Of a stretch of 47,647 nucleotides of DNA, positions 3,988-21,522 are shown piece by piece. The notes under the pieces were generated by a model that saw nothing but the letters and a program-made list of their open reading frames with translations, ran no database searches and was not told the DNA's origin. The position numbers and the translations under genes were made by a program. Location: the NCBI GenBank assembly GCA_045601085.1, contig JAZRZD010000019.1:1-47647 (forward strand). The letters run 5' to 3'. Each line of letters begins with the position of its first letter. The stretch's first letter is position 1. The DNA comes from Bacilli bacterium. Its GTDB lineage: Bacteria > Bacillota_I > Bacilli_A > RFN20 > CAG-826.

Positions 3988-6444
3988 TTACTTTTTCTTT
4001 TTCTTATCTTTCTTTTCTTCTTCTAAGAAAGCGAGTTCTTGATTTCTCTTCTTCTTACGTTTACCACCGCCAAGGAATTGGAATAAACCTTTGAAGAAGT
4101 GACCATCAAACATTTTGATCATACCATCGAGTTGATAATCACTGATAGCTCCACCAGTCATTCTTGAGAAGCTTCTTAATGGTTGATAGTAAACACCCAT
4201 GATAATGCTATTTGCAGTGGCTTTTGGTGAGCACTTAATAGCAACACGAAGTGCCCAAGCAAAGAATCTACCACTCCAACCACGTGCATATCTTAATGCG
4301 TTAACAGTGGTTAATCTATTTGGGTGTAAACGTTTCTTACGGTAGAATACTGGATCATTGTCGCTATATTCTTCACCAAATAACTTAACAAATTCTTCTT
4401 TAGTTAAATTATTGACATCGCCAGAATAGTATTTTGCAATATCTTTACCTTCATAAGGATTTGCACTAACTGTGCCTTTAACTTTGATATCGCCTGTGAG
4501 TCTAATATCAGCACTTGAAGCACCAACATAGATTTCATAAGCGCCATCTTCAACTTCCCATTTATTTGTTGCAACATCGAAATATCTAAATGTGTAATCA
4601 TCAAATGGAATTTCCACTTTTATGTCTTTTCCAGCTTCAATTTCAACTTTTGCGAATCCTTTGAGTTCCTTAATTGGTCTAAAGATTTTGCTATCTTTCT
4701 TACCAACATAAAGTTGAACAATTTCTTTACCTTTTACATTGCCAGTATTTTTAACTGTTAATGAAACGCCTTTGTCGGTAACTTTTAAATCACTATATTC
4801 AAATGTTGTATAGCTTAAGCCATATCCAAATGGATATAAGACTTCTTTATTAACTTTTTCATAATATCTATAGCCAACATAAATAGATTCTTTATATTCA
4901 GCGACATATTCTTTCTTATGGAAATAGTTAATAGATGGAGAATCTTCTAATGTTAATGGATAAGATTCTGAAAGTTTACCACTTGGATTAACTTTACCAG
5001 TAATAACATTAAGAACTGCGCCAGAAGAGGCTTCACCACCAAGGAAACCATGAACAACTGCGTTAGCGGATTTAACAAATCTTAAATCAGTAACACTACC
5101 TGCAGAAACAATAACAACAATCTTTTTACCTAAAGACGAGAGTTTCTTGAATAATTCCACTTGGTTATTTGGAATATTGATATCTTCTCTATCTAAGCCT
5201 TCAGCTTCTGTAACATCATCTAAACCAATATAGTAGAGAATTACATCAGCATTAGCGGCTAATTTGATAGCTTCTTTTTCTAACTTCTTATCAATTTTAT
5301 TTTTGAAATTATATCCAGCAGCATATCCAACTACATCTAACGAAGTATTTTTAATTTCTTCTAATGCTAAATCGATGTGGTGTGGATTGACCTTACTAGA
5401 GCCAGCGCCTTGATATCTTGGAATTTCAACGAATTTACCAATTAATGCGACTTTTGTAGCATCTTTTAATGGTAATACGCCATCATTTTCTAATAAGACA
5501 ATTGATTCTTCAGCAACTTGACGAGCAATATCATGATGTTTTGCTGGATCAATAGGTCCGTCTTTTTCTTTTAATGCTTTACTTGTACGGAATGTAACAT
5601 CAAGTAAAGAATCTAATCTTTCATCAATTTCTTTAATATCTAATTTGCCTTCATTAACTGCTGTGTAGAGTTCATATGTTGTATCTCCACCACCAGTAGG
5701 CATTTCAAGTTCATTAGTGCAGAGTAAACCTTTAATACGATCATTTTCTCCACCCCAGTCAGTAACAATAATTCCTTTATAACCCCATTCATTACGAAGG
5801 ATATCTTTTGCTAAGTGTTCACTTTCGTTAGTGTAAAAACCATTAACCAAGTTATAAGAGGACATTAATGCATGAGGTTGTCCTTCCTTAACTGCAATTT
5901 CAAAGTTTGTTAAATAGATTTCTCTAAGAGCTCTTTCATCAATTTTGGAATCAACAGTGCAACGGCATAATTCTTGGCTATTTGCAGCGAAGTGTTTAAC
6001 ACAAGCGCTAATACCTGTAGATTCAATACCTTTAATTAAGTTAGCGGCTAATTTACCTGCTAAATATGGATCTTCTGAGAAATATTCAAAGTTTCTACCA
6101 CATAAAACGTTTCTTTTAATATTGATGCCAGGGCCTAATAAAATATTTACATCTTGGTCTCTAGCTTCTTTTGATAAGGTTTCACCCATGGTTTTTAATA
6201 AGTCTAAGTTCCATGTGTTAGCACTACCACTAGCGGTAGGGAAACATGTTGCTTTAACAGATTCATTTAAACCTAAGTGATCGCTTGCGCAAGCTTGTTT
6301 TCTTAAACCATGAGGGCCATCAGAGAGAAACATGCTTGGAATACCAAGTCGATCAATGTTTTGTGTTTCCCAGAATGTTTTTCCGGTTAACAAAGCAACT
6401 TTCTCTTTTAAAGTAAGTTGGTCAATAATGTCCTTATATTTCAT
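3988..6444 (-). CDS. GH3 beta-glucosidase with Fn3-like domain
   Basis: SDGPHG, GRNFEYFSEDP, KHFAAN, IVTDW nucleophile motif, EGLDR, YPFGYGLSYT, EIVQLY; no signal peptide. Confidence 0.93.
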   Translation of the reverse strand: MKYKDIIDQLTLKEKVALLTGKTFWETQNIDRLGIPSMFLSDGPHGLRKQACASDHLGLNESVKATCFPTASGSANTWNLDLLKTMGETLSKEARDQDVNILLGPGINIKRNVLCGRNFEYFSEDPYLAGKLAANLIKGIESTGISACVKHFAANSQELCRCTVDSKIDERALREIYLTNFEIAVKEGQPHALMSSYNLVNGFYTNESEHLAKDILRNEWGYKGIIVTDWGGENDRIKGLLCTNELEMPTGGGDTTYELYTAVNEGKLDIKEIDERLDSLLDVTFRTSKALKEKDGPIDPAKHHDIARQVAEESIVLLENDGVLPLKDATKVALIGKFVEIPRYQGAGSSKVNPHHIDLALEEIKNTSLDVVGYAAGYNFKNKIDKKLEKEAIKLAANADVILYYIGLDDVTEAEGLDREDINIPNNQVELFKKLSSLGKKIVVIVSAGSVTDLRFVKSANAVVHGFLGGEASSGAVLNVITGKVNPSGKLSESYPLTLEDSPSINYFHKKEYVAEYKESIYVGYRYYEKVNKEVLYPFGYGLSYTTFEYSDLKVTDKGVSLTVKNTGNVKGKEIVQLYVGKKDSKIFRPIKELKGFAKVEIEAGKDIKVEIPFDDYTFRYFDVATNKWEVEDGAYEIYVGASSADIRLTGDIKVKGTVSANPYEGKDIAKYYSGDVNNLTKEEFVKLFGEEYSDNDPVFYRKKRLHPNRLTTVNALRYARGWSGRFFAWALRVAIKCSPKATANSIIMGVYYQPLRSFSRMTGGAISDYQLDGMIKMFDGHFFKGLFQFLGGGKRKKKRNQELAFLEEEKKDKKKKK

Positions 6445-6571: not shown

Positions 6572-7888
6572 TTAAGCAATTGCTTTAACTTCGAAGTGTT
6601 TAACAGAACCACTTCTAATTAAATCTGTATTAGTAGAATTACCTTCTTGGACTGCGCCATCAAAGTAATATTCTAATCCATCAGCAACTTTAATTGTTCT
6701 GGTTTTGCTTGTATTACTTGAAGCAATAGATAAGACAGAACCAGTAACATCTAATAAGCCATTAACTGTAATATCAGTGTAACATGCACAGATACCATTA
6801 TCGAATCCGTCGATTGTTAATGAAGCACCTTCATTAATTTTGAGGATACTTTCGTTAAGACCGAATTTTGAGCTACCATCACCTGGACATGTAATGATAA
6901 CATCAGTATCAATAACACCGGTTAACATAGATCCAACTGTTGAAGAACCCCAGAATGAAAGACCATCACAGTTAGAATTTTCTGGAGCACTAATTGTTAA
7001 TGGGCCACCAGTAATAACGACTGTTCCTTTAGCATTTGCTGGGAATGTTAAAGTCATATCTTCAAATGTGAAACCAGTATCTGCAACTGTTAATGTTGTA
7101 GTCTTTGATGATGCATCATAGCTAAGTTCAACACCATCAAATGTGCTATTGAAGTTGTATGGTGTGTAGTGTGTTGCAACACCAGAAGCATCAGTAACTG
7201 TGACATAACCACCATTAACATAGTCTTTAGTAATGATATATTGATCTTTACCAATTGATGCTGGATCTTTTAATGTCCATTTTTCATGTAATGATCTAGA
7301 ATTTGTACCATCTCTAGTAACTTTTCTTGTGTAATCTGTTTCATTTAAAGCAGGAATTTCAAGTGCTTCTGCTTCATAACCACAGACTGGGCAGTAACCG
7401 CTAGCTGTATGACCAGCGACTCCGTAATCTGGTGCAACTTCTGGGTCACCATCATCGAAAAGGTGATCATTTAAATCAGCACCGAAGTTTTTGTCTTCAT
7501 AGCCTTCATCTAAACATGCGTGCCAGTGTTGTTCTGAGTCATTGGACCAATCATCAGCGTATGCGTGTTCTAATTTTGGAATGTCTCTAGTTTCATCAAC
7601 AAAACCACAAACTGTACATTTATGGCTTTCTAAACCTTTGGATTCGAAGCTTGCTTCTCTAGTAACAACCCATTCAAATGTGTGGTTGGCTTTGTCAGAA
7701 ACTTCTACACAGCTTGTATCAGTACAACTGTGCCAGTGATCTGTTGCGTCTGAACTCCAAACACTTGCCCATGTATGTTCGTGTGGAGTTGGACTTGGAC
7801 CAGGACCTGGACCTGGTTCATCACTTCCACCACATGCTGCTAATAAAGCAAAAAGTGGAAGTAAAACAAGTAACTTTGTTTTTTTCAT
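6572..7888 (-). CDS. Family A lipoprotein A1 (His/Cys repeats plus putative beta-helix C-terminal domain)
   Basis: Lipobox LLAAC, PG linker, two HWHxC...CxxCG units; paralog of 11010-12329 and 20188-21522; Shine-Dalgarno (SD) site AGAGG. Confidence 0.8.
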   Translation of the reverse strand: MKKTKLLVLLPLFALLAACGGSDEPGPGPGPSPTPHEHTWASVWSSDATDHWHSCTDTSCVEVSDKANHTFEWVVTREASFESKGLESHKCTVCGFVDETRDIPKLEHAYADDWSNDSEQHWHACLDEGYEDKNFGADLNDHLFDDGDPEVAPDYGVAGHTASGYCPVCGYEAEALEIPALNETDYTRKVTRDGTNSRSLHEKWTLKDPASIGKDQYIITKDYVNGGYVTVTDASGVATHYTPYNFNSTFDGVELSYDASSKTTTLTVADTGFTFEDMTLTFPANAKGTVVITGGPLTISAPENSNCDGLSFWGSSTVGSMLTGVIDTDVIITCPGDGSSKFGLNESILKINEGASLTIDGFDNGICACYTDITVNGLLDVTGSVLSIASSNTSKTRTIKVADGLEYYFDGAVQEGNSTNTDLIRSGSVKHFEVKAIA

Positions 7889-8080: not shown

Positions 8081-10867
8081 TTACTTATCATTGAGTTGGC
8101 TATCTGTATAACCTTGTTCCCAGTTATTTAATGTGAATGGCATATAACCAACATGGTAAAGTTCATCAAATGTTACTGCATTAGTCTTCTTAGAAGAATA
8201 TGTATCGAAGTTGCAGTAGGATGTTGATTCACCACCATAGATGAATCTACCAGATTTTGGAGTAGATGTATCAGCATAATAAATCTTTGATTTAGCTGAA
8301 TCGATATGGCCGTTTGAATCATGGATAATATCTACACCAATGATCATTCTTACATGGGTTGTAGAACCTTGAACAGTTCCAGTTGGAACATTATCTTTAT
8401 ATGTTTTACCTCTAGAGACAATACCATCACCAGGAAGAATATTAGCATATACTTCTTCAAAAATGTTTGTACCCGCTGCTAGAAGATTTTCTTGAAGTTG
8501 GTATCCAAATAATGATGTTTCATCAGTTGGCATTTTTGGCATTACTGGGTCACCAGGAATATGGACAAAATCGTGGTGATCGATTTGGACAGGTACGCCA
8601 TTTGACTTTTGAGCATATTCAGCTATGTTGCCAATACCTTCATCAACGGTGTCACATGCATATTGTATACAACCATATAGAAGTTCTTTTTCAGGTGCAA
8701 CCTTATAGCTATTAAGGAATCTTTTACCAAATGTAAGTGTGTAAGCAGCACTTACAGAAGCAGCACAGTCAAGACCATGTACTTGTGTGGTATTTTTCAT
8801 GAAACATTCTTCGATATGTTCATAATCATAGAAGTCATCATTTGTTGTGTTATAAAGAGTTCCTCTATATTTACCTGGTTGGAATAACCATTCATTGTAA
8901 CCATCTTTATAGGTCCAAGGTCTATTTGTTTCCCAACGTGAGGAAGCAAGTGTATTCATGTAATCACATGCTAATTTCCTATTTCCTGTAGCGGTATAAG
9001 TAACTTCACCATCAACTTTCTTAACATATGTTCCGTCATAGCGTTGTGGAGCAGTTTTAACATATTTACCAACGCTCTTAATGAAGAATGTTTTGCTTTC
9101 TGCATCATAACCTAAATCTTCACTAGAAATCTTAAGGTTAATAGCAGGTCTTGTACCTTTAACATCAGTTACTGACTTGTGATACAATTTGAATTCACCA
9201 CTAGCCTTAACTTGATCGTTATTGGTACTGTTATCACTTCTTAATAAATAATCTTCAGGTAATTTAAGAATATCTGGAGTTATATATTCTTCAACTTCTG
9301 CTCTACTAAGGAAGAACATTTTAGCATTTTCTAATTGCTTTGTTGGATCAGTTGAACCTAATGGAGCACTAGATGGAGAAATAATACTGTTAAGTGAGTC
9401 TGGGAAGTATCTTCTCATATATTCTTCGCACCATGCTTCAGCAGCAGTGCCAGTGAAATAATAGTTTGAAGTAACTCCATCAGCTGGGTATTTTGTCATA
9501 CCAGCAAGGCCAGTAGACACTAAGAACATACCTGGTTTTCCATCATTAGCCTTAAAGTCTAAGATATAGAAATCATTATAGGATCCTTCTTTGTATGGAA
9601 TTCTAACGATATCAAGTTGTTTTGCATTAACATATCCAGGTTTTTCACCATTTTTACTTTCAAAGTTAGCAAAAATTTCAGTATTTGCGGATATCTTAAG
9701 TGGGAAGGTAACTTTTTGAGTTCCTTCTTCATCAAAAGACCAACCTATAAATTTGTAGCCTTCTTTTATGTTAGGCATACCAATAGAATTAATGATTTTG
9801 TTTTTTGGAATTTTAATGGACAATTTTTCTTGTCCTTCGTTAATAAGTGAACCACTTGTTGTTGAATATAAATCTAAATTGTAATCACTAATAACAACAT
9901 CTTCTGCGATATGTGGACCAAAGTGTTCACAATATGTACCTTTAGGACCATAAGCAGTTCTTGCGTAAATGAAAAGTTCTTCTGCAGTAACGTTTCCATC
10001 TTTATCATAGTCAGCGTAGAAATAACCATATGGGTTTTTAGTAACACCTACACTAAATTGTGAAGCAAGATCACTTGGTAAAGAAATTGTTTCATCACTA
10101 GTGCTAACAAAGCTATATGGTCTATATGTAAATTGGTTGTTATATGTTGAAGAACCAGCATCAACTGGACCAGTAATAACAGTAAATTTCTCTCCATCAA
10201 GCTTATCTAAGAAGTTATAGCTATATACATAATTTGGATTAAATACTTGTCCGACATATGGAGCACTAATTAAAACATAGAATTTTCCATTATAATTCTT
10301 AAACCAGTTAAACATTGTAGGAATATCAATGAATTTATTTCCACCAGTGGTGTAATCATCAAAAAGTTGAAGTTGACCTTTACCATCAGCATTACAGCTT
10401 AAGATGACATAGCTGACATCGTTTTCTTCGTTATTTCCAAAAACTTGGTCAAATTCTGCTTTTAATGCAGATTTAGCATCATTAACAGATGCTTCGTTGA
10501 TAGGATTACAAGAGAGGAGTTTTGTAGCAGGATTGAATGCTTGATCAAAATTATTGAATGCGTATTCGCCTGCTCTTTGTAAGCTGTAATAACCATCTTT
10601 TTGAGTGGTATTTTTAGAGTCCCAAGATCTTACATATAAATGTCTTTTGCCAACAGGATCTTCATCATCTTCAGATTCCATGACCTTAGCGCTTGTAATG
10701 TAATATGGGTAGTCATAATCATAAGGATCATCATTAACAGGACCTGGACCTGGGCCAGGACCAGGACCAACTGGATCACCACCACCGCCATCAGCGGCAA
10801 CACAACCAGTTGTTAAGCAGCACAATCCTAAAATAGTACTTAAAAACAATTTCTTTGCTCTTTTCAT
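8081..10867 (-). CDS. Family B lipoprotein B1: degenerate caspase-like domain, InlB-B repeat, DUF6273-like domain, NlpC/P60-like domain with Cys-His intact
   Basis: Lipobox LTTGC; ADYDKDGNVTAEELFIY; KEGYKFIGW; FFLS..E/YLLRS/GTRPA; GLDC701...PGD...TH838VRM. Confidence 0.72.
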   Translation of the reverse strand: MKRAKKLFLSTILGLCCLTTGCVAADGGGGDPVGPGPGPGPGPVNDDPYDYDYPYYITSAKVMESEDDEDPVGKRHLYVRSWDSKNTTQKDGYYSLQRAGEYAFNNFDQAFNPATKLLSCNPINEASVNDAKSALKAEFDQVFGNNEENDVSYVILSCNADGKGQLQLFDDYTTGGNKFIDIPTMFNWFKNYNGKFYVLISAPYVGQVFNPNYVYSYNFLDKLDGEKFTVITGPVDAGSSTYNNQFTYRPYSFVSTSDETISLPSDLASQFSVGVTKNPYGYFYADYDKDGNVTAEELFIYARTAYGPKGTYCEHFGPHIAEDVVISDYNLDLYSTTSGSLINEGQEKLSIKIPKNKIINSIGMPNIKEGYKFIGWSFDEEGTQKVTFPLKISANTEIFANFESKNGEKPGYVNAKQLDIVRIPYKEGSYNDFYILDFKANDGKPGMFLVSTGLAGMTKYPADGVTSNYYFTGTAAEAWCEEYMRRYFPDSLNSIISPSSAPLGSTDPTKQLENAKMFFLSRAEVEEYITPDILKLPEDYLLRSDNSTNNDQVKASGEFKLYHKSVTDVKGTRPAINLKISSEDLGYDAESKTFFIKSVGKYVKTAPQRYDGTYVKKVDGEVTYTATGNRKLACDYMNTLASSRWETNRPWTYKDGYNEWLFQPGKYRGTLYNTTNDDFYDYEHIEECFMKNTTQVHGLDCAASVSAAYTLTFGKRFLNSYKVAPEKELLYGCIQYACDTVDEGIGNIAEYAQKSNGVPVQIDHHDFVHIPGDPVMPKMPTDETSLFGYQLQENLLAAGTNIFEEVYANILPGDGIVSRGKTYKDNVPTGTVQGSTTHVRMIIGVDIIHDSNGHIDSAKSKIYYADTSTPKSGRFIYGGESTSYCNFDTYSSKKTNAVTFDELYHVGYMPFTLNNWEQGYTDSQLNDK
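10738..10769 (-). repeat. Degenerate hexamer repeat encoding (Gly-Pro)n linker
   Basis: GGWCCW-type units encode GPGPGPGPGP after the lipobox; a similar tract lies in A1 at about 7790-7817. Confidence 0.75.
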
Positions 10868-11009: not shown

Positions 11010-12329
11010 TTATGCTTGGATTACCTGTAAATGAGTAACATTATTGTTTTTAATATTAGCAGTATCGGTAGAAGTCATACCTGATTGAAGGACATCATTA
11101 AAGTATACTTTTAAACCAGACGCAAATTTAATTGTTCTATTAACACTATTAGTAGAAACAATAGCATATTTAGTAGCAGTAATATCTAATTCGCCATTTA
11201 CGTTAATAGGTGAATAACCTGCTCTAATACCATTAGCGAAGTTACTAATTTTTAATTTAGCACCCGCATTAATATCAATGTAGTTTGCTTTTAATCCATA
11301 ACCATTATTAGCAGTAGAATAATCTTTTGAATAATTAAGCGTTAATTGATTATCAATAGTAACTTTTGAATAATATGCTGTAGATGAAGAGTTACATGAG
11401 AATAATAAAGCAGGATCAGTAACACCTTTAGGAGCATTAATTGTTAATGGGTATCCAGTAATAATAAATTTACCTGCAACAGAGTCACTACATGGGAAGA
11501 TAATAGCAACATTATTAAGTATTACTCCACCAGGTTTAGCGACATTAATTGTTGTAGTTTTTGTTGATTTATCGATATTAATTTCAATACCTGGGAATTT
11601 TTGTGCAAATTCTAAATAATTATAAGCAGTTGTAACCATTTTTCCTGTTGCATAGTCATCAACAATAGCAAAACCATAATCATGAGTTTTAGTAACAACA
11701 TATGAATCTCTATTAATAGTTGTTGCGTCTTTTAATGTCCATGTCTCGGTTAAAACACCATTACTCCATGAAGATTCTTTAGCGTAATCAACTTCATTTA
11801 GTTTTGGGATTTCTATTGCCTCAACATCAGCATTACAAACACTACATTTTCCAGTAGCGGTACTACCAGCTTCTGTATATGTTGGTTCTATATCATTTCC
11901 ACCATTAATAAGTGTATGTTCTGTAACATCTATACCAAACACCTTGTCTTCATAACCGGCATCAGTGCATGCATGCCAGTGATGAGTACCATCAGAAGAC
12001 CATTCAGTAGAATAATGAAGTTCTAATTTTGGAATATCTTCTTTTTCCTTAACATATCCGCATATTTTGCATTTATTGCTTCTAACACCTTTAGCAGTTG
12101 CGGTTGGTTGTTTTGTTATAATCCATTCAAATGTGTGAGGTGCTTTATTAAACATTTCTTCACATCCAGGATCAGCGCAATAATGCCAATGGTAAGTTTC
12201 ATCTTTATCCCAAGAATGAGAAACATTATGTTCTGCAGGGTTAGGACCAGGTGAAGGTTGTTCCCCAGCACTACATCCAACTACAAAAATAAGAATTGGA
12301 AGTAGAATGATTAAATTTTTCCTTTTCAT
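11010..12329 (-). CDS. Family A lipoprotein A2
   Basis: Lipobox VVGC; WDKDETYHWHYC, CKICG, HHWHAC, CSVC; starts 22 nt downstream of the B2 stop with no terminator between. Confidence 0.8.
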   Translation of the reverse strand: MKRKNLIILLPILIFVVGCSAGEQPSPGPNPAEHNVSHSWDKDETYHWHYCADPGCEEMFNKAPHTFEWIITKQPTATAKGVRSNKCKICGYVKEKEDIPKLELHYSTEWSSDGTHHWHACTDAGYEDKVFGIDVTEHTLINGGNDIEPTYTEAGSTATGKCSVCNADVEAIEIPKLNEVDYAKESSWSNGVLTETWTLKDATTINRDSYVVTKTHDYGFAIVDDYATGKMVTTAYNYLEFAQKFPGIEINIDKSTKTTTINVAKPGGVILNNVAIIFPCSDSVAGKFIITGYPLTINAPKGVTDPALLFSCNSSSTAYYSKVTIDNQLTLNYSKDYSTANNGYGLKANYIDINAGAKLKISNFANGIRAGYSPINVNGELDITATKYAIVSTNSVNRTIKFASGLKVYFNDVLQSGMTSTDTANIKNNNVTHLQVIQA

Positions 12330-12351: not shown

Positions 12352-14991
12352 TTAATGTCCGGTTTCCCAATTATTTAATGTGACTGGAAGATATCCAGAC
12401 ACTAAAAGGTCACTAAATGACATAACATTTGCACCACTTTCGGAATAAACATCAGATGTAAGGAATGATGTTAATTGACCACCATAGATGAATCTACCAA
12501 CTTGTGGAGCGGAGGTATCTGCAAATATAACTTTTGATAAATCTGGATCAATTTTGCCACTACCATTATGAACAAGTTCAACGGCAGTAATTAATCTTGT
12601 GTGAGAGATATCTGCACCAGTATCAATAGTTCCTCTAGCAATAATCATGTCTCCTGGAAGAATGTTAGCATATACATCATCATTAATATTCTTACCATTA
12701 TTATCTAAGTTTGCTTGAATGCCGTCTAAGAAAACACCAGTATCATTATTTGAAGCAACAGGAAGAGTTGGAGAACCAACAACAGAAACATAGTCTTGAT
12801 ACTTAACTCTACCAACATCTTTATAATCTCTAATATCACCTGTACCTGAAGTAACAGCGTCGGCTGCAAAGTTTTTAATGGTATATAAGCTATCAGGTTG
12901 AGTCATGTCTAAAGCAGTAAACTTATAGTCAAATGTCATAGAATATGAAGCACTAATGGCTGCGCCAGCATCAGTACCATGAATATCAACACCATCAATA
13001 CAAGTATCAATATTTTCATAATCATAGAATTCTCTATCTAATTCATTGTAAACAAGACCTCTATAGCCTCCAGCTTTAAAAAGGAAACGATCTGTTTCAT
13101 TATATGCGTATGTAAATCCTACATTAGTTTCCCAATAAGTTGAGGCAAGTGTGTTCATATTGTCACAAACGAGTTTTCTATTACCGCTTGCAGTATATGT
13201 AACATTACCGTCTGTTTTAACAGTGTAAGTGCCATCATAACGTTGTGGTGCTTTTTTAATATATCTACCAACACTCTTAATGTAGAATGTTTCACTATCA
13301 GGATCAAACGCTAAATCTTCTTTAGAAATACTAAGGTTAAATGCTGGTCTAGTGCCTCTAACTTCAGTGTTAGCTTTTGAGCCGTTATAGTAAATACTAC
13401 CGCTAGTTCCGACATAACAGTTTTTAAGATTACCATCGGACATTAAGAAGTAAGATTCTTTTAATCCTCTATTACTTGTTGTGAAGTATTTGTTAGCTTC
13501 ATCCTTATTAAGGAAGAATACTTTTTCATTATCTAACTTAAATGAATCACCTGATCCAAATGACGCATTAGATGGGGAAATTAAATTTATGGCATTTTCT
13601 GGGAATAATTTATTCATGTATTCATTACACCAAGCTTGTGCTTTAGTGCCATCAAAATAATATCCTTCAGTTTGTCCTTCGTTAGGGAAACAGGTCATAC
13701 CTGCAATATCTTTAGAAACAAGGAACATTCCTTCTTTATCATCATTTGTTTTGAAATCTAAGATAATAAAGTCGCCATAAGTGCCATCTTTATATGGAAT
13801 TCTAAGAATGTCTTTTTCTTTTGCAGAAATATAACCACTTGGTAATTCTATTTCTTCATCTTCACTCTTGTAATTAGCAAATAATTTAGTGTTCTCGCTT
13901 AATGTGAATGGGAAAGATACTCTATTTTTGCCTTGTTTATCATATGACCAGTATGCAAATTTATAGCCTTCTTTTGCAGTAGGCATACCAAGAGAATCAA
14001 TAATTTTGTTATCAGGAATATTAAAAATTAAATGTTCACCACTAGAGGCTAAAGAACCACTAGTTGTGGAGAATAATTCCAAAGTATGATTTGAAATAAA
14101 AATTTCGTTTCCACGGTTTGGAGCGTAATAATGACAATCAGTACCTTTACTACCAAATCCTGCTCTTCCATAATAGAAAATTTCATCGAGAGTGACATTG
14201 CCATCATGGTCAATATCAGCATCCATTTTATTGTTTGCATCAGGCACAATACCCGCACTGATTTTTCCATCTACATCAGCAACGCCATAATAGTAAGGTG
14301 TATATAAATTTGATGTAGAAGCTTCAAGATAAACTACGAATTTATCACCATATGAATCTAAGAAATTAATAAAGTTTGTACTCATATTTGGGTAATTTGG
14401 ATCAAGCCATCTACCACAGAAACAAGCATTAACGAATACATAAAATTTACCTTTATATTGGCTTAACCATTCAAAAACCTTATTAAGTTTAACTACATGG
14501 GAATAATTATCAGTGCTAATAACGCCATCATCAAAGATAGCTAATCCACCAGCGGCATCACCATGGGCACCAAATACAACATAGTTAATATCGTTATCTT
14601 CGTTATTTGCGAAGAATGCATCCATTTCATTTTTCAAAAGTTCATGGCAACCACTTTCACCAACACCAGCCATTGGATCAACAGAAAGCAAATGGGTGTC
14701 AGGATTTAAAGCAGCCATAAAATTATCGTAAGTAAATTCAGCAGCGCCTTGCATACCACGTTTACCATCTTTAATTTCTGGTCTTACTGTGTCCCAAGTT
14801 CTTATATAAAGGTGCTTTTTACCAACATTAGTAGGAATTTCTGATGTTTCCATTGCTTTGGAATCAGTAATTAAATAATCAAATTCATATTCTTTACTGG
14901 TTGGATCATCAACAGGATTACTAACACATCCAGTGGTTAAACAAGAAAGTGTTAATAATGAACCTAAAAGAAATTTTTTGCTTCTGCCCAT
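12352..14991 (-). CDS. Family B lipoprotein B2: caspase-like domain with intact His-Cys dyad, InlB-B repeat, DUF6273-like domain, NlpC/P60-like domain lacking catalytic Cys
   Basis: Lipobox LTTGC; YVVFGAH143G and YVFVNAC190FCG; ADIDHDGNVTLDEIFYY; GTDA675 in place of GLDC. Confidence 0.75.
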   Translation of the reverse strand: MGRSKKFLLGSLLTLSCLTTGCVSNPVDDPTSKEYEFDYLITDSKAMETSEIPTNVGKKHLYIRTWDTVRPEIKDGKRGMQGAAEFTYDNFMAALNPDTHLLSVDPMAGVGESGCHELLKNEMDAFFANNEDNDINYVVFGAHGDAAGGLAIFDDGVISTDNYSHVVKLNKVFEWLSQYKGKFYVFVNACFCGRWLDPNYPNMSTNFINFLDSYGDKFVVYLEASTSNLYTPYYYGVADVDGKISAGIVPDANNKMDADIDHDGNVTLDEIFYYGRAGFGSKGTDCHYYAPNRGNEIFISNHTLELFSTTSGSLASSGEHLIFNIPDNKIIDSLGMPTAKEGYKFAYWSYDKQGKNRVSFPFTLSENTKLFANYKSEDEEIELPSGYISAKEKDILRIPYKDGTYGDFIILDFKTNDDKEGMFLVSKDIAGMTCFPNEGQTEGYYFDGTKAQAWCNEYMNKLFPENAINLISPSNASFGSGDSFKLDNEKVFFLNKDEANKYFTTSNRGLKESYFLMSDGNLKNCYVGTSGSIYYNGSKANTEVRGTRPAFNLSISKEDLAFDPDSETFYIKSVGRYIKKAPQRYDGTYTVKTDGNVTYTASGNRKLVCDNMNTLASTYWETNVGFTYAYNETDRFLFKAGGYRGLVYNELDREFYDYENIDTCIDGVDIHGTDAGAAISASYSMTFDYKFTALDMTQPDSLYTIKNFAADAVTSGTGDIRDYKDVGRVKYQDYVSVVGSPTLPVASNNDTGVFLDGIQANLDNNGKNINDDVYANILPGDMIIARGTIDTGADISHTRLITAVELVHNGSGKIDPDLSKVIFADTSAPQVGRFIYGGQLTSFLTSDVYSESGANVMSFSDLLVSGYLPVTLNNWETGH

Positions 14992-15150: not shown

Positions 15151-17925
15151 TTAGGCATTTGGAGTAACTGGAAAGCCAATATCCCAGTCATTTAATGTCA
15201 TTGGAAGGTATCCAACTTTAAGTAAATAATCAAATGTCATACTATTTGTCTTCTTAGAAGAATATGTATCAAATGTGCAGTATGATGTTGATTCACCACC
15301 ATAGACGAATCTACCTGATTTTGGAGTAGATGTATCAGCGTAATAAACTTTTGAATTAGCTGTATCAATATGACCATCTTTATCGTGGAAAACTTCCATA
15401 CCAATTGCCATTCTAGCGTGTGAAGTTTTATCAATAGCAACTCCACTTGCGTTATATTCTTTACCTCTAGAAACAATAGCGTCACCTGGACGAATCTTTA
15501 AGAAGACTTCTTCGTAAATGTTTTTACCAGCAGCTTCAAGATCGGCGGCTAATTGTTGTTGGAATAATGTTGTTTCATTATCTGGCATTGTAGGAGTTGC
15601 AGGATTACCAACAACAGAGACGATGTCATAATGTTTAGCAGTAGAACTATAAGTTACTTCACCAGTTGTGCTATTAACTTTTTTACTGTTATATTCAGGA
15701 ATTTCACCAACACCTGGATCAATAGCATCAGCAGCATATTCTATAACGCCATATAAGTATTCATCCTTTGGAGCAACATTGACATTTCTAAGGAATTTTT
15801 TACCAAATGTTAATGTATATGCAGCACTTACAGCAGCAGCACAGTCAAGACCATGTACTTGAGTACCAACAAAGCATTCTTCAATATGTTCATAATCATA
15901 GAAATCTCTAAGATTTGTGGTATAAAGAGTTCCTCTATATTTACCTGGTTTGAATAAGTGAATGCCATAGCCATCTTTATAAACCCAAGGAGTTGTTGTT
16001 TCCCATGGAGAAGAAGCAAGGCTATTCATATTATCACATGCAAGTTTTCTATTTCCTGTAGCAGTATAGACAACTTCACCATCAACTTTAACAGTGTATG
16101 TACCGTCATAACGTTTTGGAGTAGTCTTTACGTATTTACCAACACTCTTAATGTAATAAGTTTTAGTGGTCTCATCGTAACCTAAATCTTCTCTAGAAAT
16201 GTTAAGATTCATTGCAGGTCTTGTACCTTTAACATCTGTTACTGACTTGTTATATAATTTGAAATCACCACTAGCCTTAACTTGATCGTTATTGGTTGTG
16301 TTATCACTTCTTAACAAATAATCTTCAGGTAATCTTAAGATTTCATCATTAAGGAATCCTTGAACTTCTTCTCTACTAAGGAAGAACATTTTAGCATTTT
16401 CTAACCTCTTTGTTGGATCACTTGAACCTAATGGTGCATTACATGGAATGATTAAATTATTCAATGTGTCTGGGAAGAATCTTCTTATATATTCTTGGCA
16501 CCATGCTTCAGCAGCAGTTCCAGCAAAATAATAGTTTTTAGTCACACCATCAGCTGGGTATTTAGTCATACCAGCAAGGTCTGCAGAAACCACAAACATA
16601 CCGTCATTACCTTCATTAGTCTTGAAGTCTAAGATATAGAAATCATTATAAGTTCCATCAACATATGGAATTCTAATCTTATCTAACTTACTAGCGTTAA
16701 TATATCCAGGTTTTGAACCGTTTTTGTTTTCGTAATTAGCAAATAATTCTGTATTGCTACTAATTACAATTGGGAATGTAACTTTATCATTACCTTCTCT
16801 ATCATATGACCAACCTGTGAATTTATAGCCATCTTTAATGTTTGGCATACCAATGGAGTTAATAATCTTATTATTTGGTACTTTAATGGATAATTTTTCT
16901 TGCCCATCATTGATTAAAGAACCACTAGTTAAGGAATATAGGTCTAAATTATAATCACTTAATAAGACTTCACCTTCTATATTTGCGCCAAAAGCTTCAC
17001 AGAATGTTCCTGATGAACCATATGCGGTTCTAGTATACATAAATAGTTCTTCTACTGTGAGGTTACCATCACTATCAAGGTCTGCAACAAATTTATCGTG
17101 GGCATTTTTAGTTAAACCAACACTTAATTGAGAACCAAGGTCACTAGGTAACACTATTGTAGTGTCGCTTGTGCTCTTATAGCTATAAGGACTACTAAAT
17201 GTGTATGTTTCATCACTTTGGAGAAGTGCTGGACCTGTAATAATTGTGTATTTTTCCTTATTAAGGCTTTTTATAACATTAACAACAGCATCAGATCTAA
17301 TCAAACGACCAGAATATGCGGCAGTTAACACAAAGAAGAACTTACCTTTGTAGTTATTAAACCATTTAACAACATCAGAGAATGCAACCTTTTTGTTTCC
17401 GCCAGTTGTATAGTCATCAAAAATTTGAAGATTACCATTACCATCACCGGTACAACTTAAAACAACATAGTTCATATCATTTTCTTCGTTATCACCAAAG
17501 AATGTGTCTAATTCATTTTTCCAGGAAGCTTTAACAGCGTCTACTGTATCACCTGTAATAGGTTCATAAGAATATAGTTTTGTATCAGGTTTAAAAGCTT
17601 CGTCAAAATTATTAAATGTATATTCACCTGCTCTTTGTAAACCATAATAACCGTCTTTTTGTGTGGTATTTTTGCAATCCCACGCTCTTACATAAAGATG
17701 TTTTTTCCCAATTGGATCTTCGACATCTTCTGTTTCCATCGCCTTTGTGTCGGTGATGTAATATGGAAAATCATAATCATAAATTTCATCATCGGTAGGT
17801 TGAGTAGGTCCTACAGGATTGGTTGGATCAATAGGATTAATAGGATCGGCATTACTAACACAGCCGGTTGCTAAGACACAAAAACCTAAAACGCTCGTTA
17901 AAATTGCTTTTTTATTCTTAAACAT
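15151..17925 (-). CDS. Family B lipoprotein B3: degenerate caspase-like domain, InlB-B repeat, DUF6273-like domain, NlpC/P60-like domain with Cys-His intact
   Basis: Lipobox LATGC; closest paralog of B1; GLDC695...RPGD...SH836ARM; caspase positions are Thr159 and Ala203. Confidence 0.72.
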   Translation of the reverse strand: MFKNKKAILTSVLGFCVLATGCVSNADPINPIDPTNPVGPTQPTDDEIYDYDFPYYITDTKAMETEDVEDPIGKKHLYVRAWDCKNTTQKDGYYGLQRAGEYTFNNFDEAFKPDTKLYSYEPITGDTVDAVKASWKNELDTFFGDNEENDMNYVVLSCTGDGNGNLQIFDDYTTGGNKKVAFSDVVKWFNNYKGKFFFVLTAAYSGRLIRSDAVVNVIKSLNKEKYTIITGPALLQSDETYTFSSPYSYKSTSDTTIVLPSDLGSQLSVGLTKNAHDKFVADLDSDGNLTVEELFMYTRTAYGSSGTFCEAFGANIEGEVLLSDYNLDLYSLTSGSLINDGQEKLSIKVPNNKIINSIGMPNIKDGYKFTGWSYDREGNDKVTFPIVISSNTELFANYENKNGSKPGYINASKLDKIRIPYVDGTYNDFYILDFKTNEGNDGMFVVSADLAGMTKYPADGVTKNYYFAGTAAEAWCQEYIRRFFPDTLNNLIIPCNAPLGSSDPTKRLENAKMFFLSREEVQGFLNDEILRLPEDYLLRSDNTTNNDQVKASGDFKLYNKSVTDVKGTRPAMNLNISREDLGYDETTKTYYIKSVGKYVKTTPKRYDGTYTVKVDGEVVYTATGNRKLACDNMNSLASSPWETTTPWVYKDGYGIHLFKPGKYRGTLYTTNLRDFYDYEHIEECFVGTQVHGLDCAAAVSAAYTLTFGKKFLRNVNVAPKDEYLYGVIEYAADAIDPGVGEIPEYNSKKVNSTTGEVTYSSTAKHYDIVSVVGNPATPTMPDNETTLFQQQLAADLEAAGKNIYEEVFLKIRPGDAIVSRGKEYNASGVAIDKTSHARMAIGMEVFHDKDGHIDTANSKVYYADTSTPKSGRFVYGGESTSYCTFDTYSSKKTNSMTFDYLLKVGYLPMTLNDWDIGFPVTPNA

Positions 17926-18134: not shown

Positions 18135-20120
18135 ATGAAGAAAAGAAATATATTAAGTTATTTAGTTTTGCCTTTTGTGCTTGTTTCATGTGTCACAAAT
18201 ACTGATCCACAACCTGAACCAGAACCAGAAGTCCCTAAAACAATTGAGGTAACAGACATTAGATCAATCCACACTGATTTACAAAAAGAATACATTTACG
18301 GTATTTATTCACAACTTCCATCAAGTTTAAGTCCTGGTGCTTCTGAAAAATCAAAACCAGCACCAATTGTTATTAATGTTGAAGACTCAACGGAATATTC
18401 TAAAAGCCAAGTTAGTGAATATACATTAAAGGTAAGTAAATCTAGTGAATTTGAAACATATAAGGAATATGCCAGCAATACTGGCACATTTTCTTTAACT
18501 AACTTAAACATTAATTGTTGCTATTACTATAAATATGATGCTCTTGTGGGAGATCAAACATATGAAAGTGATATCAAAGGTTTTTATATTGAAGATGAAT
18601 GTCCAAGAAACATTGATATTGAAGGAGTAACTAATGTTAGAGATATTGGTGGCTGGAAAATAGCAGGCACTAATAAACATATTCCCCAAAACTTACTCTA
18701 TAGATCTGCAAAACTTAATAGCTCATCTAGCACAAACATCACACAAAAAGGAATGGAACAATTTGCAGAACTTGGTATCAAAACTGAAATTGATTTAAGA
18801 AATACTCAAGATGAAGATTTACCAGATGAATCTGTTTTACCTGGTGTTAGTTATTATCATTGCGATATGGTTAATAGTTCAAACATTTCAAGTGATTTAA
18901 GTAAACAAGGAATTAAAAAAACTATGCAAATCCTTGCTGATAAGGATAACTATCCTATTCTTTATCACTGCACTTACGGAGCTGATCGTACTGGTTTTAT
19001 TTCATTTGCACTTGAAGCTTTAGCAGGTGTTGAAGAAGAAACACTTTATAAAGATTATATGTGGACTAATTTTGCAAGTATTGGCGGAAAAAGATCCACA
19101 TCCATAATTAGTGGATATATAAATGATATGCGCTACAGAAGTGGATGCAATGATATTGGTCTAGGTGTTGAGGCCTTCTTGTTAAGTATAGGGGTTACTC
19201 AAGCAGAAATTGACTCCATTAAAGCTATTCTTACTGGAGAAGAAGAAAATTATTTTGATGGCCATACACCAAAAGATAATTGGGAAAAAGTAGATGAAAA
19301 TAAACATTCTTTGTTCTGCGATGAATGTGGAGACCCACTTGTTACTGAAGAACATATTTTCACCGCTCCATTTGTGAAATTAGATGACAACGATAACCAT
19401 TTTATAAAATGTAAGAAATGCGGTTATGAAAAATCATTTGCCCACTCCTATATTGATGGTATTTGTGAATGTGGTAAAACTGAACCAGGAAATTCAAAAG
19501 CATATTCCTTTACACATCCTGCTAATCAAGCACTTTCTAATAAAGACTTATCAAGTATTACTAACTCAAATATCGACTACTCATCATATATTGTTTTAGA
19601 CATGACATTAGATATGGATTACATAGTTGCTGATTCAAGTAAAGCTAATGTATTTAAAGCATCATTTACTTGTGAAAATGGTGATACTTATGGATTTGGC
19701 TTAGGAAATGAATGCCCATCCACGGTCAATAATCTATCTGCAAGAATATTAACTCCTACAGGCGCTTGGAAGGGCAGTGTTGCCTACATTAAACTAATGA
19801 GGGAACCAGATTTTGATCAATATCTTTTAGATGGTAATAAATTCAAATTCCAAGCCAGAATGATAATAAATAACTTAGATTTGACTATAAAAATGTATTT
19901 TAGAATAGCCAAAGCCTCAGGCGGATACACTGATTGGTTAGAATCATCTACTGGTTGTGATGCTGCTTCAGTTTATGAAGATAAACATTTACCTGCACCA
20001 GTCGCAAATATTTACTTCACACATACAAGAAAAGAATGTGGATACACAGTTAGTAATTTACACTATTATTCATCTAGTGAAGCACAAAAGTTAGCCCATA
20101 ACCCGTCATTAGATAGTTAA
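18135..20120 (+). CDS. Lipoprotein tyrosine/lipid phosphatase (Y_phosphatase3 / MptpB-like CX5R) with His/Cys repeats
   Basis: Lipobox LVSC; NVRDIGG, LYRS, EIDLR; P-loop HCTYGADRTG (18966-18995); H...CxxCG repeats after the catalytic domain. Confidence 0.85.
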   Translation: MKKRNILSYLVLPFVLVSCVTNTDPQPEPEPEVPKTIEVTDIRSIHTDLQKEYIYGIYSQLPSSLSPGASEKSKPAPIVINVEDSTEYSKSQVSEYTLKVSKSSEFETYKEYASNTGTFSLTNLNINCCYYYKYDALVGDQTYESDIKGFYIEDECPRNIDIEGVTNVRDIGGWKIAGTNKHIPQNLLYRSAKLNSSSSTNITQKGMEQFAELGIKTEIDLRNTQDEDLPDESVLPGVSYYHCDMVNSSNISSDLSKQGIKKTMQILADKDNYPILYHCTYGADRTGFISFALEALAGVEEETLYKDYMWTNFASIGGKRSTSIISGYINDMRYRSGCNDIGLGVEAFLLSIGVTQAEIDSIKAILTGEEENYFDGHTPKDNWEKVDENKHSLFCDECGDPLVTEEHIFTAPFVKLDDNDNHFIKCKKCGYEKSFAHSYIDGICECGKTEPGNSKAYSFTHPANQALSNKDLSSITNSNIDYSSYIVLDMTLDMDYIVADSSKANVFKASFTCENGDTYGFGLGNECPSTVNNLSARILTPTGAWKGSVAYIKLMREPDFDQYLLDGNKFKFQARMIINNLDLTIKMYFRIAKASGGYTDWLESSTGCDAASVYEDKHLPAPVANIYFTHTRKECGYTVSNLHYYSSSEAQKLAHNPSLDS

Positions 20121-20187: not shown

Positions 20188-21522
20188 TTATGCTGGAACA
20201 ACTTGTAAGTGCTTAACACTATTATTCTTAATTCCGGTTGTATCTGTGATATCCAGGCTTGTTTGAAGAACATCATTAAAGTAAACTTTAGAACCGGATG
20301 CGAATTTAAGTTTTCTAGCATTGCTACCATTACTTACAACTGCAAGGTTTGTTGTAGTGATATCTAATGCTCCATTAACAGTAATTGGCGTATAGTATGC
20401 TTTAATACCATAATAATAACCTTTGATTGTTAATTTAGCGCCTTCATTAATTGTTAAGATACTTTCTCTCATAGCATATCCATTAGTGACACTAGGATAT
20501 GAACTTGGATAATTAATGGTTAAATTATTATCAATAATAACTTCAGACATAGCGGCAACTGCGGTGCTACTTGAGAATTTAAGTGTGCCATCTTCAACTC
20601 CCTTAGGAGCGTTAATTGTTAATGGTCCTCCAGTAATAATATATTTAGGAGCGGCAAACGAAGTGGATGGGAAGATTAAACAAGTATTATTAAGTGTTAC
20701 TCCACTAGATTTTTTTACATTAATTGTCACAGTTTGTGTGGACCAATTAACTGACATTTCAATATCAGGGAATAACTTATTAAAGTCTTTGTAATTGCAA
20801 TGTGTTGTAACCATCTTTCCAGTATCATAATTATCAACATCAACATATCCATAATCATAATTTTTAGTAACAACATATGAATCTCTAGAGATAATTGAGG
20901 CATCTTTAAGAGTCCATGTTTCAGTTAAAACGTTAGATTCTGCTCTAACGGAGGTTTTACTATAGTTAGTGTCATTTAATATAGGTATTTCCACTGCTTC
21001 AATAGTTGCATTACAAACACTACATGTTCCACTAGCGGTAAGACCAGGGGATTCTAAAGTTGGTTCAACTTCAGCAGTTGCATTTATAAGGGTATGTTCA
21101 TCAATGTCTTTTCCAAAAACTTTATCTTCATATCCTGCATCTGTACATCCATGCCAATGGTGTCTTCCATCAGATGACCATGATGAAGAATAATGGAGTT
21201 CTAATTTAGGAATATCTTGTTTTTCTATTACATAACCACAAACGGTGCATTTATTACTTTTTACACCTTTGGCGTCTACGGTTGGTTGTTTAGTGGTAAC
21301 CCATTCGAATGTATGTTTTGTTTTGTTAAACATTTCTTCACAACCAGGATCAGCACAATAATGCCAATGGTATGTATTATCTTTATCCCAAGCGGTAGAT
21401 ACATTATGACCTGTTGGATCAGGTGATGGTTCTGGAGCAGGATCTCCTCCAGCACTACAACCCACAGCAAAAACAATTAATGGGAGTAAAAATAATAATT
21501 TTGTCTTCTTATAACTTGCCAT
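20188..21522 (-). CDS. Family A lipoprotein A3
   Basis: Lipobox AVGC; N-terminal repeat region nearly identical to A2 (YHWHYCADPGCEEMFNK). Confidence 0.8.
   Translation of the reverse strand: MASYKKTKLLFLLPLIVFAVGCSAGGDPAPEPSPDPTGHNVSTAWDKDNTYHWHYCADPGCEEMFNKTKHTFEWVTTKQPTVDAKGVKSNKCTVCGYVIEKQDIPKLELHYSSSWSSDGRHHWHGCTDAGYEDKVFGKDIDEHTLINATAEVEPTLESPGLTASGTCSVCNATIEAVEIPILNDTNYSKTSVRAESNVLTETWTLKDASIISRDSYVVTKNYDYGYVDVDNYDTGKMVTTHCNYKDFNKLFPDIEMSVNWSTQTVTINVKKSSGVTLNNTCLIFPSTSFAAPKYIITGGPLTINAPKGVEDGTLKFSSSTAVAAMSEVIIDNNLTINYPSSYPSVTNGYAMRESILTINEGAKLTIKGYYYGIKAYYTPITVNGALDITTTNLAVVSNGSNARKLKFASGSKVYFNDVLQTSLDITDTTGIKNNSVKHLQVVPA

Follow-up and report, generated by a model that had tools for sequence, protein, structure and literature searches.

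A divergent clan-CD (caspase/legumain-type) domain in a predicted surface lipoprotein of an uncultured Bacilli bacterium

The B2 gene, its paralogs and its predicted lipid anchor

We analysed a DNA stretch of 47,647 nucleotides (hereafter, the window), covering positions 1 to 47,647 of contig JAZRZD010000019.1 from an uncultured Bacilli bacterium (assembly GCA_045601085.1; GTDB lineage Bacillota_I, Bacilli_A, RFN20, CAG-826). Its minus strand carries B2, a gene of the open reading frame list with its own ribosome-binding site, which encodes a multidomain lipoprotein of 879 amino acids (12352-14991). Residues ~55-300 of B2 (14092-14829, minus strand) form a divergent domain of the clan-CD (caspase/legumain-like) type, as indicated by AlphaFold, Foldseek, VIA, hhalign and phmmer. 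This domain contains a putative catalytic His, His143 (FGAHG; 14563-14565), and a putative nucleophile, Cys190 (NACFCG; 14422-14424), aligned with the His and the Cys of Peptidase_C14, respectively.

Two paralogs of B2 are encoded on the same strand: B3 (924 amino acids; 15151-17925; 47% identity to B2) and B1 (928 amino acids; 8081-10867; 46% identity). A terminator-like hairpin, found by consensus scan and in the sequence, follows B3 (15133-15103, minus strand), and a promoter-like element, TTGAAA-17-CATAAT with TG, lies ahead of B2 (15060-15032, minus strand); both are pattern matches only. A2, which appears in the open reading frame list as the gene of a lipoprotein of 439 amino acids (11010-12329, minus strand), starts 22 bp downstream of B2, and the two genes probably form one transcript. 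Another terminator-like site was found after A2 by consensus scan (10990-10960).

The first-pass annotation, which was made from the sequence alone, had described B2 as lipid-anchored, and the protein does carry a lipoprotein signal. Its N-terminus, MGRSKKFLLGSLLTLSCLTTGC, opens with basic residues, continues with a hydrophobic core and ends in the manner of a lipobox (residues 1-22, LTTGC; 14926-14991, minus strand, with Cys22 at 14926-14928). The lipobox was called with a regular expression for a PROSITE-type rule, whose first match in B2 ends at Cys17; the matches in B1 and B3 end at the Cys aligned with Cys22 of B2, which is invariant across the three paralogs. Since the genome encodes both Lgt (E = 2e-42) and LspA (E = 2.6e-27), lipid anchoring of B2 at Cys22 is plausible. 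In addition, no penicillin-binding protein transpeptidase was found in the genome (0.79 Mb, 75% complete) and only one Mur-ligase-type match was obtained. The bacterium is thus probably wall-less, so that its lipoproteins would be directly exposed, and the overall picture suggests a Mollicutes-like lifestyle without TGA reassignment. The genome uses the standard bacterial code, in which TGA is not reassigned, and the GC content is ~32% in this window.

Sequence relatives and predicted fold of the N-terminal domain

In clan CD, as stated in an excerpt of PMC12445089, the catalytic His precedes the Cys and each of them ends a hydrophobic strand, with a Gly beside the His and an Ala-Cys motif. 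This arrangement was found in B2, where VVFGAH143G places a Gly beside the His and FVNAC190 provides the Ala-Cys motif further along the chain. His143 (in the context NYVVFGAHGD) and Cys190 (in the context KFYVFVNACFCG) occupy the codons at which the first-pass annotation had located them, spaced by 47 residues. The claim that each residue follows a β-strand also held, strands being modelled at residues 135-141 before His143 and 182-188 before Cys190, and each residue lies two positions beyond the end of its strand.

The assignment of B2 to the C14/C13 type could not be recovered by direct profile search: B2 had no Pfam match to C14, C13, C11 or C25 at E ≤ 1 and was itself below the gathering cut-offs of both Peptidase_C14 (PF00656; 21.4 bits) and Peptidase_C13 (PF01650; 22.8 bits). 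A phmmer search with B2 against 1.84 billion representative proteins returned 11 matches. Four of these are close, partial or paralogous sequences, namely P0005, P0006 (which is B3), P0007 and P0008. Two others, P0009 (1214 amino acids; E = 5.1e-18) and P0010 (963 amino acids; E = 2.5e-12), are distant, full-length relatives that bear the dyad and have the same domain order. Four shorter relatives, P0011, P0012 (E = 2.7e-5), P0014 and P0015, also bear the dyad, in motifs such as FSGHG...VNTCNSG or TAHG...LDACHCG. The E-values of P0009, P0010 and P0012 indicate that the pattern goes beyond chance. The last match, P0013, is a repeat protein that matched the tail region alone, and it was rejected as spurious. 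Among these relatives, P0010 (22.0 bits) and P0012 (24.2 bits) passed the Peptidase_C14 cut-off, and Peptidase_C13 scores were below threshold (19.7, 19.1 and 15.4 bits for P0011, P0012 and P0010, respectively). When B2 was aligned to P0012 by BLASTP (E = 1e-12), the His, the Cys and the tail of the domain were in register.

A profile built from 11 domain sequences (A3) matched many Streptococcus mitis proteins at E ~1e-41; these are named 'caspase family protein' in their source and carry PF00656/PF01650 together with choline-binding repeats. We then compared A3 by hhalign with an independent C14 set, consisting of four strong Peptidase_C14 domains (E = 4e-35 to 1e-15) from 299 scored genomes of the phylum. 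The alignment reached a probability of 95.8% (E = 8.1e-9, 112 columns) and placed FGAHG on YAGHG and VNAC on LDAC, that is, His143 on the catalytic His and Cys190 on the catalytic Cys. A look-up with a protein language model returned C13/C14 clusters (scores 0.90-0.92), which we treat as a lead only. Residues 30-300 and 60-300 of B2, used as word-index queries, retrieved B2 itself only or, among shorter proteins, nothing.

To describe the fold, an AlphaFold2 model of B2 residues 1-300 was computed from a 14-row alignment. In the core of the model (residues ~55-223), the means of the predicted local distance difference test (pLDDT) over 10-residue blocks were mostly 65-96, with three blocks at 53-60. 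Its elements follow one another as strand 59-65, helix, strand 99-103, helix, strand 135-141, His143, helix 169-176, strand 182-188 and Cys190, and the order predicted by the model is that of the caspase topology. A structural match to clan CD, the absence of which had been named beforehand as an argument against a caspase-type domain, was present in both fold searches performed with the model. Foldseek gave 32 matches in the PDB at E ≤ 0.001; among the matches listed, all were CED-3, caspase or MALT1, the best being 4m9r (CED-3; E = 1.7e-4), with template modelling scores of merely 0.33-0.48. The VIA search, which is independent of Foldseek, ranked 48,161 chains, and ranks 1-30 were held by clan-CD or caspase-like chains (Z 8.6-12.1). 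In this top 30, 26 titles name a clan-CD enzyme or pseudo-enzyme, and the other four (GSU0716, Raptor twice, and Hcp3-Tce1) are caspase-like by recall only or could not be judged. VIA matches included PIGK (Z 12.1, root-mean-square deviation of 3.4 Å, 183 aligned residues; second PIGK match at Z 11.5), metacaspase-4 (Z 11.5), OaAEP1 (Z 11.4), GSU0716 (Z 11.3), MALT1 (Z 11.2) and legumain (Z 10.8). The first unrelated fold appeared at Z 7.7, and C11 and C25 enzymes were found at Z ~6.4-6.5 (clostripain 6.5, RgpB 6.4, iotapain 6.4).

With both PIGK matches and OaAEP1 among the best structural neighbours, B2 could be thought of as a transpeptidase or ligase which, like GPI8/PIGK or the plant asparaginyl ligases, would join surface proteins to another molecule. 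We consider this extremely unlikely, however, as the hydrolytic metacaspases, MALT1, caspases and legumain lie within 1 Z unit of these enzymes, the Pfam scores of the relatives favour C14 over C13, and the gene neighbourhood suggests no acceptor substrate.

The resemblance of B2 to Peptidase C14 extends to the alpha/beta fold, the His-then-Cys order after strands 3 and 4, the H-G and A-C motifs, and Z-scores of 9-11.5 to metacaspases, MALT1 and caspases. B2 differs from this family by its score below the Pfam cut-off and by its predicted extracytoplasmic, lipid-anchored location, as well as by its fusion to Flg_new, DUF6273-like and Cys/His-type domains. Peptidase C13 (legumain, GPI8/PIGK and asparaginyl ligases) provides the top structural neighbours of the model, but B2 itself has no match to PF01650. 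By Z-score the two families are tied, so that the domain can be assigned to neither. Secreted clan-CD proteases, such as gingipain (C25), clostripain and the Bacteroides enzymes (C11), are also extracellular and produced by host-associated bacteria; however, their structural match to B2 is far weaker and ranked among unrelated Rossmann-type folds. The S. mitis protein likewise has a surface-tethered caspase-like domain, with a tail of the type AD.N.NG.(I/V)TL.ELYQY, but it is held by choline-binding repeats to the cell wall rather than by a lipid, and it has a single catalytic domain. Moreover, the S. mitis proteins are just 25-32% identical to B2, over a quarter to half of the query.

The residue two positions before the Cys (Cys-2) is a determinant of S1 specificity in C13 and C14. 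P0009 and P0010 have Ser at this position, P0015 and the S. mitis group have Asp, and B2 has Asn188, a variation that keeps P1 preference from being read from the sequence. As judged by title, no functional study of the choline-binding caspase family protein of S. mitis was found in the literature, and no publication was seen, by title or abstract, to describe a clan-CD caspase-type bacterial lipoprotein. Literature searches for a caspase-like lipoprotein of Mollicutes and, by title, for DxDxDG in bacterial caspase homologues returned nothing.

The domain ends in the tail ADIDHDGNVTLDEIFYY (residues 258-274; 14170-14220), which the first-pass annotation had presented as common to bacterial caspase-like domains and as kept in all three paralogs. 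Both statements agree with our data: the motif recurs in relatives with Pfam C14/C13 matches, and A258, D259, D261, D263, G264, N265, T267, E270, F272 and Y274 are invariant in B1, B2 and B3. The S. mitis relatives end in ADVNKNGRVTLDELYQYSY-type tails. Sequence and profile matches further delimit, within the tail, an EF-hand-type loop of 12 residues, D259-E270 (DIDHDGNVTLDE; 14182-14217, minus strand). In a canonical EF-hand loop of 12 residues, positions 1, 3 and 5 are Asp, position 6 is Gly, position 8 is hydrophobic and position 12 is Glu, and D259-E270 shows each of these features. D259, D263, G264, T267 and E270 are also invariant in the five full-length relatives. In PDB profile searches with A3 and with a larger alignment of 14 domains (A4), EF-hand proteins and weak Pumilio rows were returned, with no clan-CD chain; the EF-hand proteins were matched precisely over the tail (best E = 1.2e-4). 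Pfam EF-hand scores in the relatives were below threshold (11.6-16 bits versus cut-offs of 25-30), and the model shows a helix after the loop (residues 268-277), in a region with pLDDT < 50. From its sequence, the D259-E270 loop can reasonably be expected to bind Ca2+.

Retention and loss of the putative active sites

Of the three paralogs, only B2 has the dyad. The His column is occupied by Thr in B3 and Asn in B1, and the Cys column by Ala and Pro, respectively. In A4, the 10 members having either residue all have both His143 and Cys190, and the two are replaced together in the other four (B3, Thr/Ala; B1, Asn/Pro; P0005, Ile/Ala; P0007, Gln/Pro), a 10-versus-4 grouping that is defined by the dyad itself. 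The informative points of this alignment are the coupled loss of the two residues and the retention of the other conserved columns. Indeed, the four dyad-less domains retain R64, F127, D134, Y137, G148, G181, F183, G193 and K217, as well as A258, D259, G264, T267, E270 and Y274 of the tail. P0007 is an orthologue of B1 (72% identity over 301 amino acids) and P0005 is B3-like (51% identity); as both lack the dyad, the pseudo-state is older than this genome. P0008 is B2-like (46% identity), with a similarity that ends at residue 140. B2 differs most from its sisters in the caspase-like domain, where identity is 34-35%, versus 44-53% elsewhere.

The preservation of the fold in these four sequences could mean that all three paralogs use the domain as a non-catalytic scaffold or binding module, the His and Cys of B2 being an ancestral remnant not yet lost. 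In B1, B3, P0005 and P0007, the EF-hand-type tail and the structural columns have persisted despite the loss of the dyad, and the dyad-less state of P0007 indicates that the pseudo-state is stable. Bacterial pseudo-orthocaspases, which like these four proteins carry substitutions at both dyad positions, have been described (excerpt of PMC6426788); those covered by the excerpt have Tyr/Ser and are of the cytoplasmic cyanobacterial type, whereas the proteins described here are surface lipoproteins encoded beside an intact paralog. Nevertheless, a scaffold role for B2 seems fairly unlikely to us. B2 shares the dyad with distant relatives at 21-31% identity (P0009, P0010, P0011, P0012, P0014, P0015 and the S. 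mitis group), its H-G and A-C context in B2 is intact, and the two residues were lost jointly, as expected of a working pair.

Overall, we hold with moderate confidence that B2 is an active, lipid-tethered clan-CD endopeptidase with a His143/Cys190 dyad and a Ca2+-binding loop. Several observations weigh against this reading, in addition to the definition of the A4 groups by the dyad itself. The domain occurs without its dyad in two paralogs and two orthologue fragments, and its retention in B1, B3, P0005 and P0007 implies some non-catalytic value. No B2 orthologue spanning the dyad was found in the data, including in a search among shorter proteins. The N-terminal domain of B2 gave no match in Pfam, NCBIfam, the PDB (phmmer) or PADLOC, and PF00656 had no match in the whole genome, even at E ≤ 1. 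When a profile restricted to the B family was used (six sequences, four of them dyad-less), hhalign found the same register against C14 with a probability of just 8.7% (E = 0.0038). The link from B2 to C14, as judged from these alignments, is real but dependent on intermediate sequences. Finally, the AlphaFold2 model is moderate overall (mean pLDDT of 58.2), and the segment that holds the EF-hand-type loop (residues 224-300) has pLDDT < 50.

If B2 is an active endopeptidase, its residues ~55-300 would act as a highly divergent cysteine peptidase domain of the caspase/metacaspase/legumain type, tethered to the outer face of the cell membrane by the lipid-modified N-terminal Cys. His143, in the H-G motif after strand 3, would activate Cys190, in the A-C motif after strand 4, and the latter would attack an extracellular protein at the peptide bond that follows a defined P1 residue. 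Binding of Ca2+ by the D259-E270 loop, in the p10-like part, may stabilize or switch the domain. The Flg_new repeat, the DUF6273-like (C-type-lectin-like) region and the C-terminal domain might then position or recruit the target, candidate substrates being the sister lipoproteins B1, B3 and A2, or host or competitor proteins.

The downstream part of B2 begins with a Flg_new/Listeria-Bacteroides repeat (PF09479; residues 327-372; 13876-14013, minus strand), which scored 18.9 bits in B2 (cut-off of 27) and 23.3 bits on the excised segment; the score of P0010 was above the cut-off (34.7 bits). It is followed by a DUF6273-like region (PF19789; residues ~423-526; 13414-13725, minus strand), with 15.8 bits in B2, below the cut-off of 23.5, and 24.6 bits in the aligned region of P0009, the only one above it. 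DUF6273 has been described as C-type-lectin-like in targets of phage diversity-generating retroelements (excerpt of PMC10743442) and as the N-terminal domain of ThomasA, a gut immunoglobulin A protease (excerpt of PMC12402451).

The protein ends with a conserved domain of ~300 amino acids, delimited in alignment A6 (residues ~582-879; 12355-13248, minus strand), whose conserved residues include the Cys of an (H/R)G(L)(D/E)C motif and the His of an (S/T)H motif. The Cys is present in B1, B3, P0009, P0010 and L005 (HGLDC, RGLDC or GLNC). B2 alone has Ala675 at this position (HGTDAG; 12967-12969), and the His, His797 in B2 (12601-12603), is kept by all. In L005 (7824-10115), a locus of a Eubacteriales metagenome-assembled genome, the C-terminal domain stands alone, N-terminal in a 763-amino-acid Flg_new/fn3 surface protein. 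No Pfam or PDB profile match was obtained for the C-terminal domain, one of the PDB searches having matched the Flg_new region only, to internalin B. Leads point to a papain fold of the NlpC/P60 or CHAP-like type: in a protein atlas, 32% of the cluster members are NlpC/P60 and 28% are CHAP. Comparison with NlpC/P60 by hhalign gave merely 40%, over 24 columns around the His, and the AlphaFold model of this domain was unusable (mean pLDDT of 40.7).

P0009 and P0010 keep both putative active sites. Since B2 is both the sole keeper of the dyad and the sole loser of the C-terminal Cys, it appears to be the protease specialist of the trio, and the pattern suggests a bifunctional ancestor whose two roles were divided among specialists, B2 for proteolysis and both B1 and B3 for the other site. 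A more specific version, in which a P0009/P0010-type ancestor gave rise to a division of labour, would make B2 a maturase or sheddase acting in trans on its dead-protease sisters, or part of a trio that captures host proteins such as immunoglobulins through its DUF6273 lectin-like domains and cuts them, as a cysteine-protease analogue of the paired binder/protease surface systems of mycoplasmas; B1 and B3 would have kept only the C-terminal Cys/His site, possibly NlpC/P60-like. We regard this version as unlikely.

The position of the domain between the anchor and the distal domains also brings to mind a cis-autoprocessing module like C80 of the MARTX (multifunctional autoprocessing repeats-in-toxin) and large clostridial toxins, which would free the distal domains from the lipid anchor. 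Clan CD does include self-cleaving domains (excerpt of PMC12445089), and the low-confidence linker 224-260 resembles an inter-subunit linker. Such a role is very unlikely, however. B1 and B3 share this architecture but lack the dyad, so release in cis is not general to the family; the structural neighbours are C13 and C14, not C80; and the distal Cys/His-type domain of B2 lacks its Cys, which would leave little to activate.

The B2 family is rare. At E ≤ 1e-5, profile A3 matched none of the 398 other scored genomes of the class (two genomes were unscored), and two metagenome scans for related loci found none. A related-locus search found one genome locus, with the C-terminal domain alone, and among 60 related genomes P0003 matched just a 42-residue tail-like stretch, in one genome. 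Each of the relatives that were looked up corresponds to a cluster with just one or two sequences, of metagenomic origin.

Extracellular clan-CD proteases are already known, as are pseudo-orthocaspases (excerpt of PMC6426788), and within this known clan B2 forms a new, divergent branch, which is unusual in its architecture and paralog pattern but brings no new principle. Most of the clan-CD proteases known from bacterial surfaces belong to a small number of oral and gut pathogens, whereas the B2 domain, which has diverged beyond the reach of the standard family models and is predicted to be lipid-anchored, belongs to a tiny genome of a probably wall-less bacterium. If active, B2 would establish a new family within clan CD and would be a candidate for the processing of host or self proteins in an uncultured lineage. 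Moreover, the reciprocal loss of sites among tandem paralogs would offer a clean natural case of a bifunctional surface enzyme resolved into specialists and pseudo-enzymes, and it points to the paralog in which each activity would be expected.

Neighbouring genes and the termini of distant relatives

P0009 and P0010 have ordinary signal peptides with no lipobox, and their C-termini share a hydrophobic FF.RI...FSWLPF tail after Cys-rich modules, a feature that might signal another mode of anchoring or sorting. The Cys modules in the C-terminal extension of P0009 resemble those of the A family, although the similarity is not significant by BLASTP.

The A family comprises three paralogous lipoproteins of 438-444 amino acids, 43-62% identical to one another, which are interleaved with the B genes and encoded on the minus strand (6572-7888, 11010-12329 and 20188-21522, the second being A2). 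Their N-terminal halves contain repeated H.WH...C...C..CG modules, and rubredoxin-like Pfam matches to them are weak. A fusion link between the A lipoproteins and the Cys-rich tail of P0009 was considered but not supported, as the BLASTP E values were merely 0.06-0.14 and P0010 gave no match.

The A/B lipoprotein cluster is interrupted on the opposite strand by a gene (18135-20120, plus strand) for another lipoprotein, of 661 amino acids, with a lipobox (LVSC), a Y_phosphatase3 tyrosine-phosphatase domain (E = 2.5e-29) and then Cys-rich, zinc-ribbon-like modules. Another gene of the window encodes a beta-glucosidase-type protein of glycoside hydrolase family 3 (3988-6444, minus strand), with Glyco_hydro_3 N and C domains and an Fn3-like domain. 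This protein ends in a long, lysine-rich C-terminal tail (...EEEKKDKKKKK).

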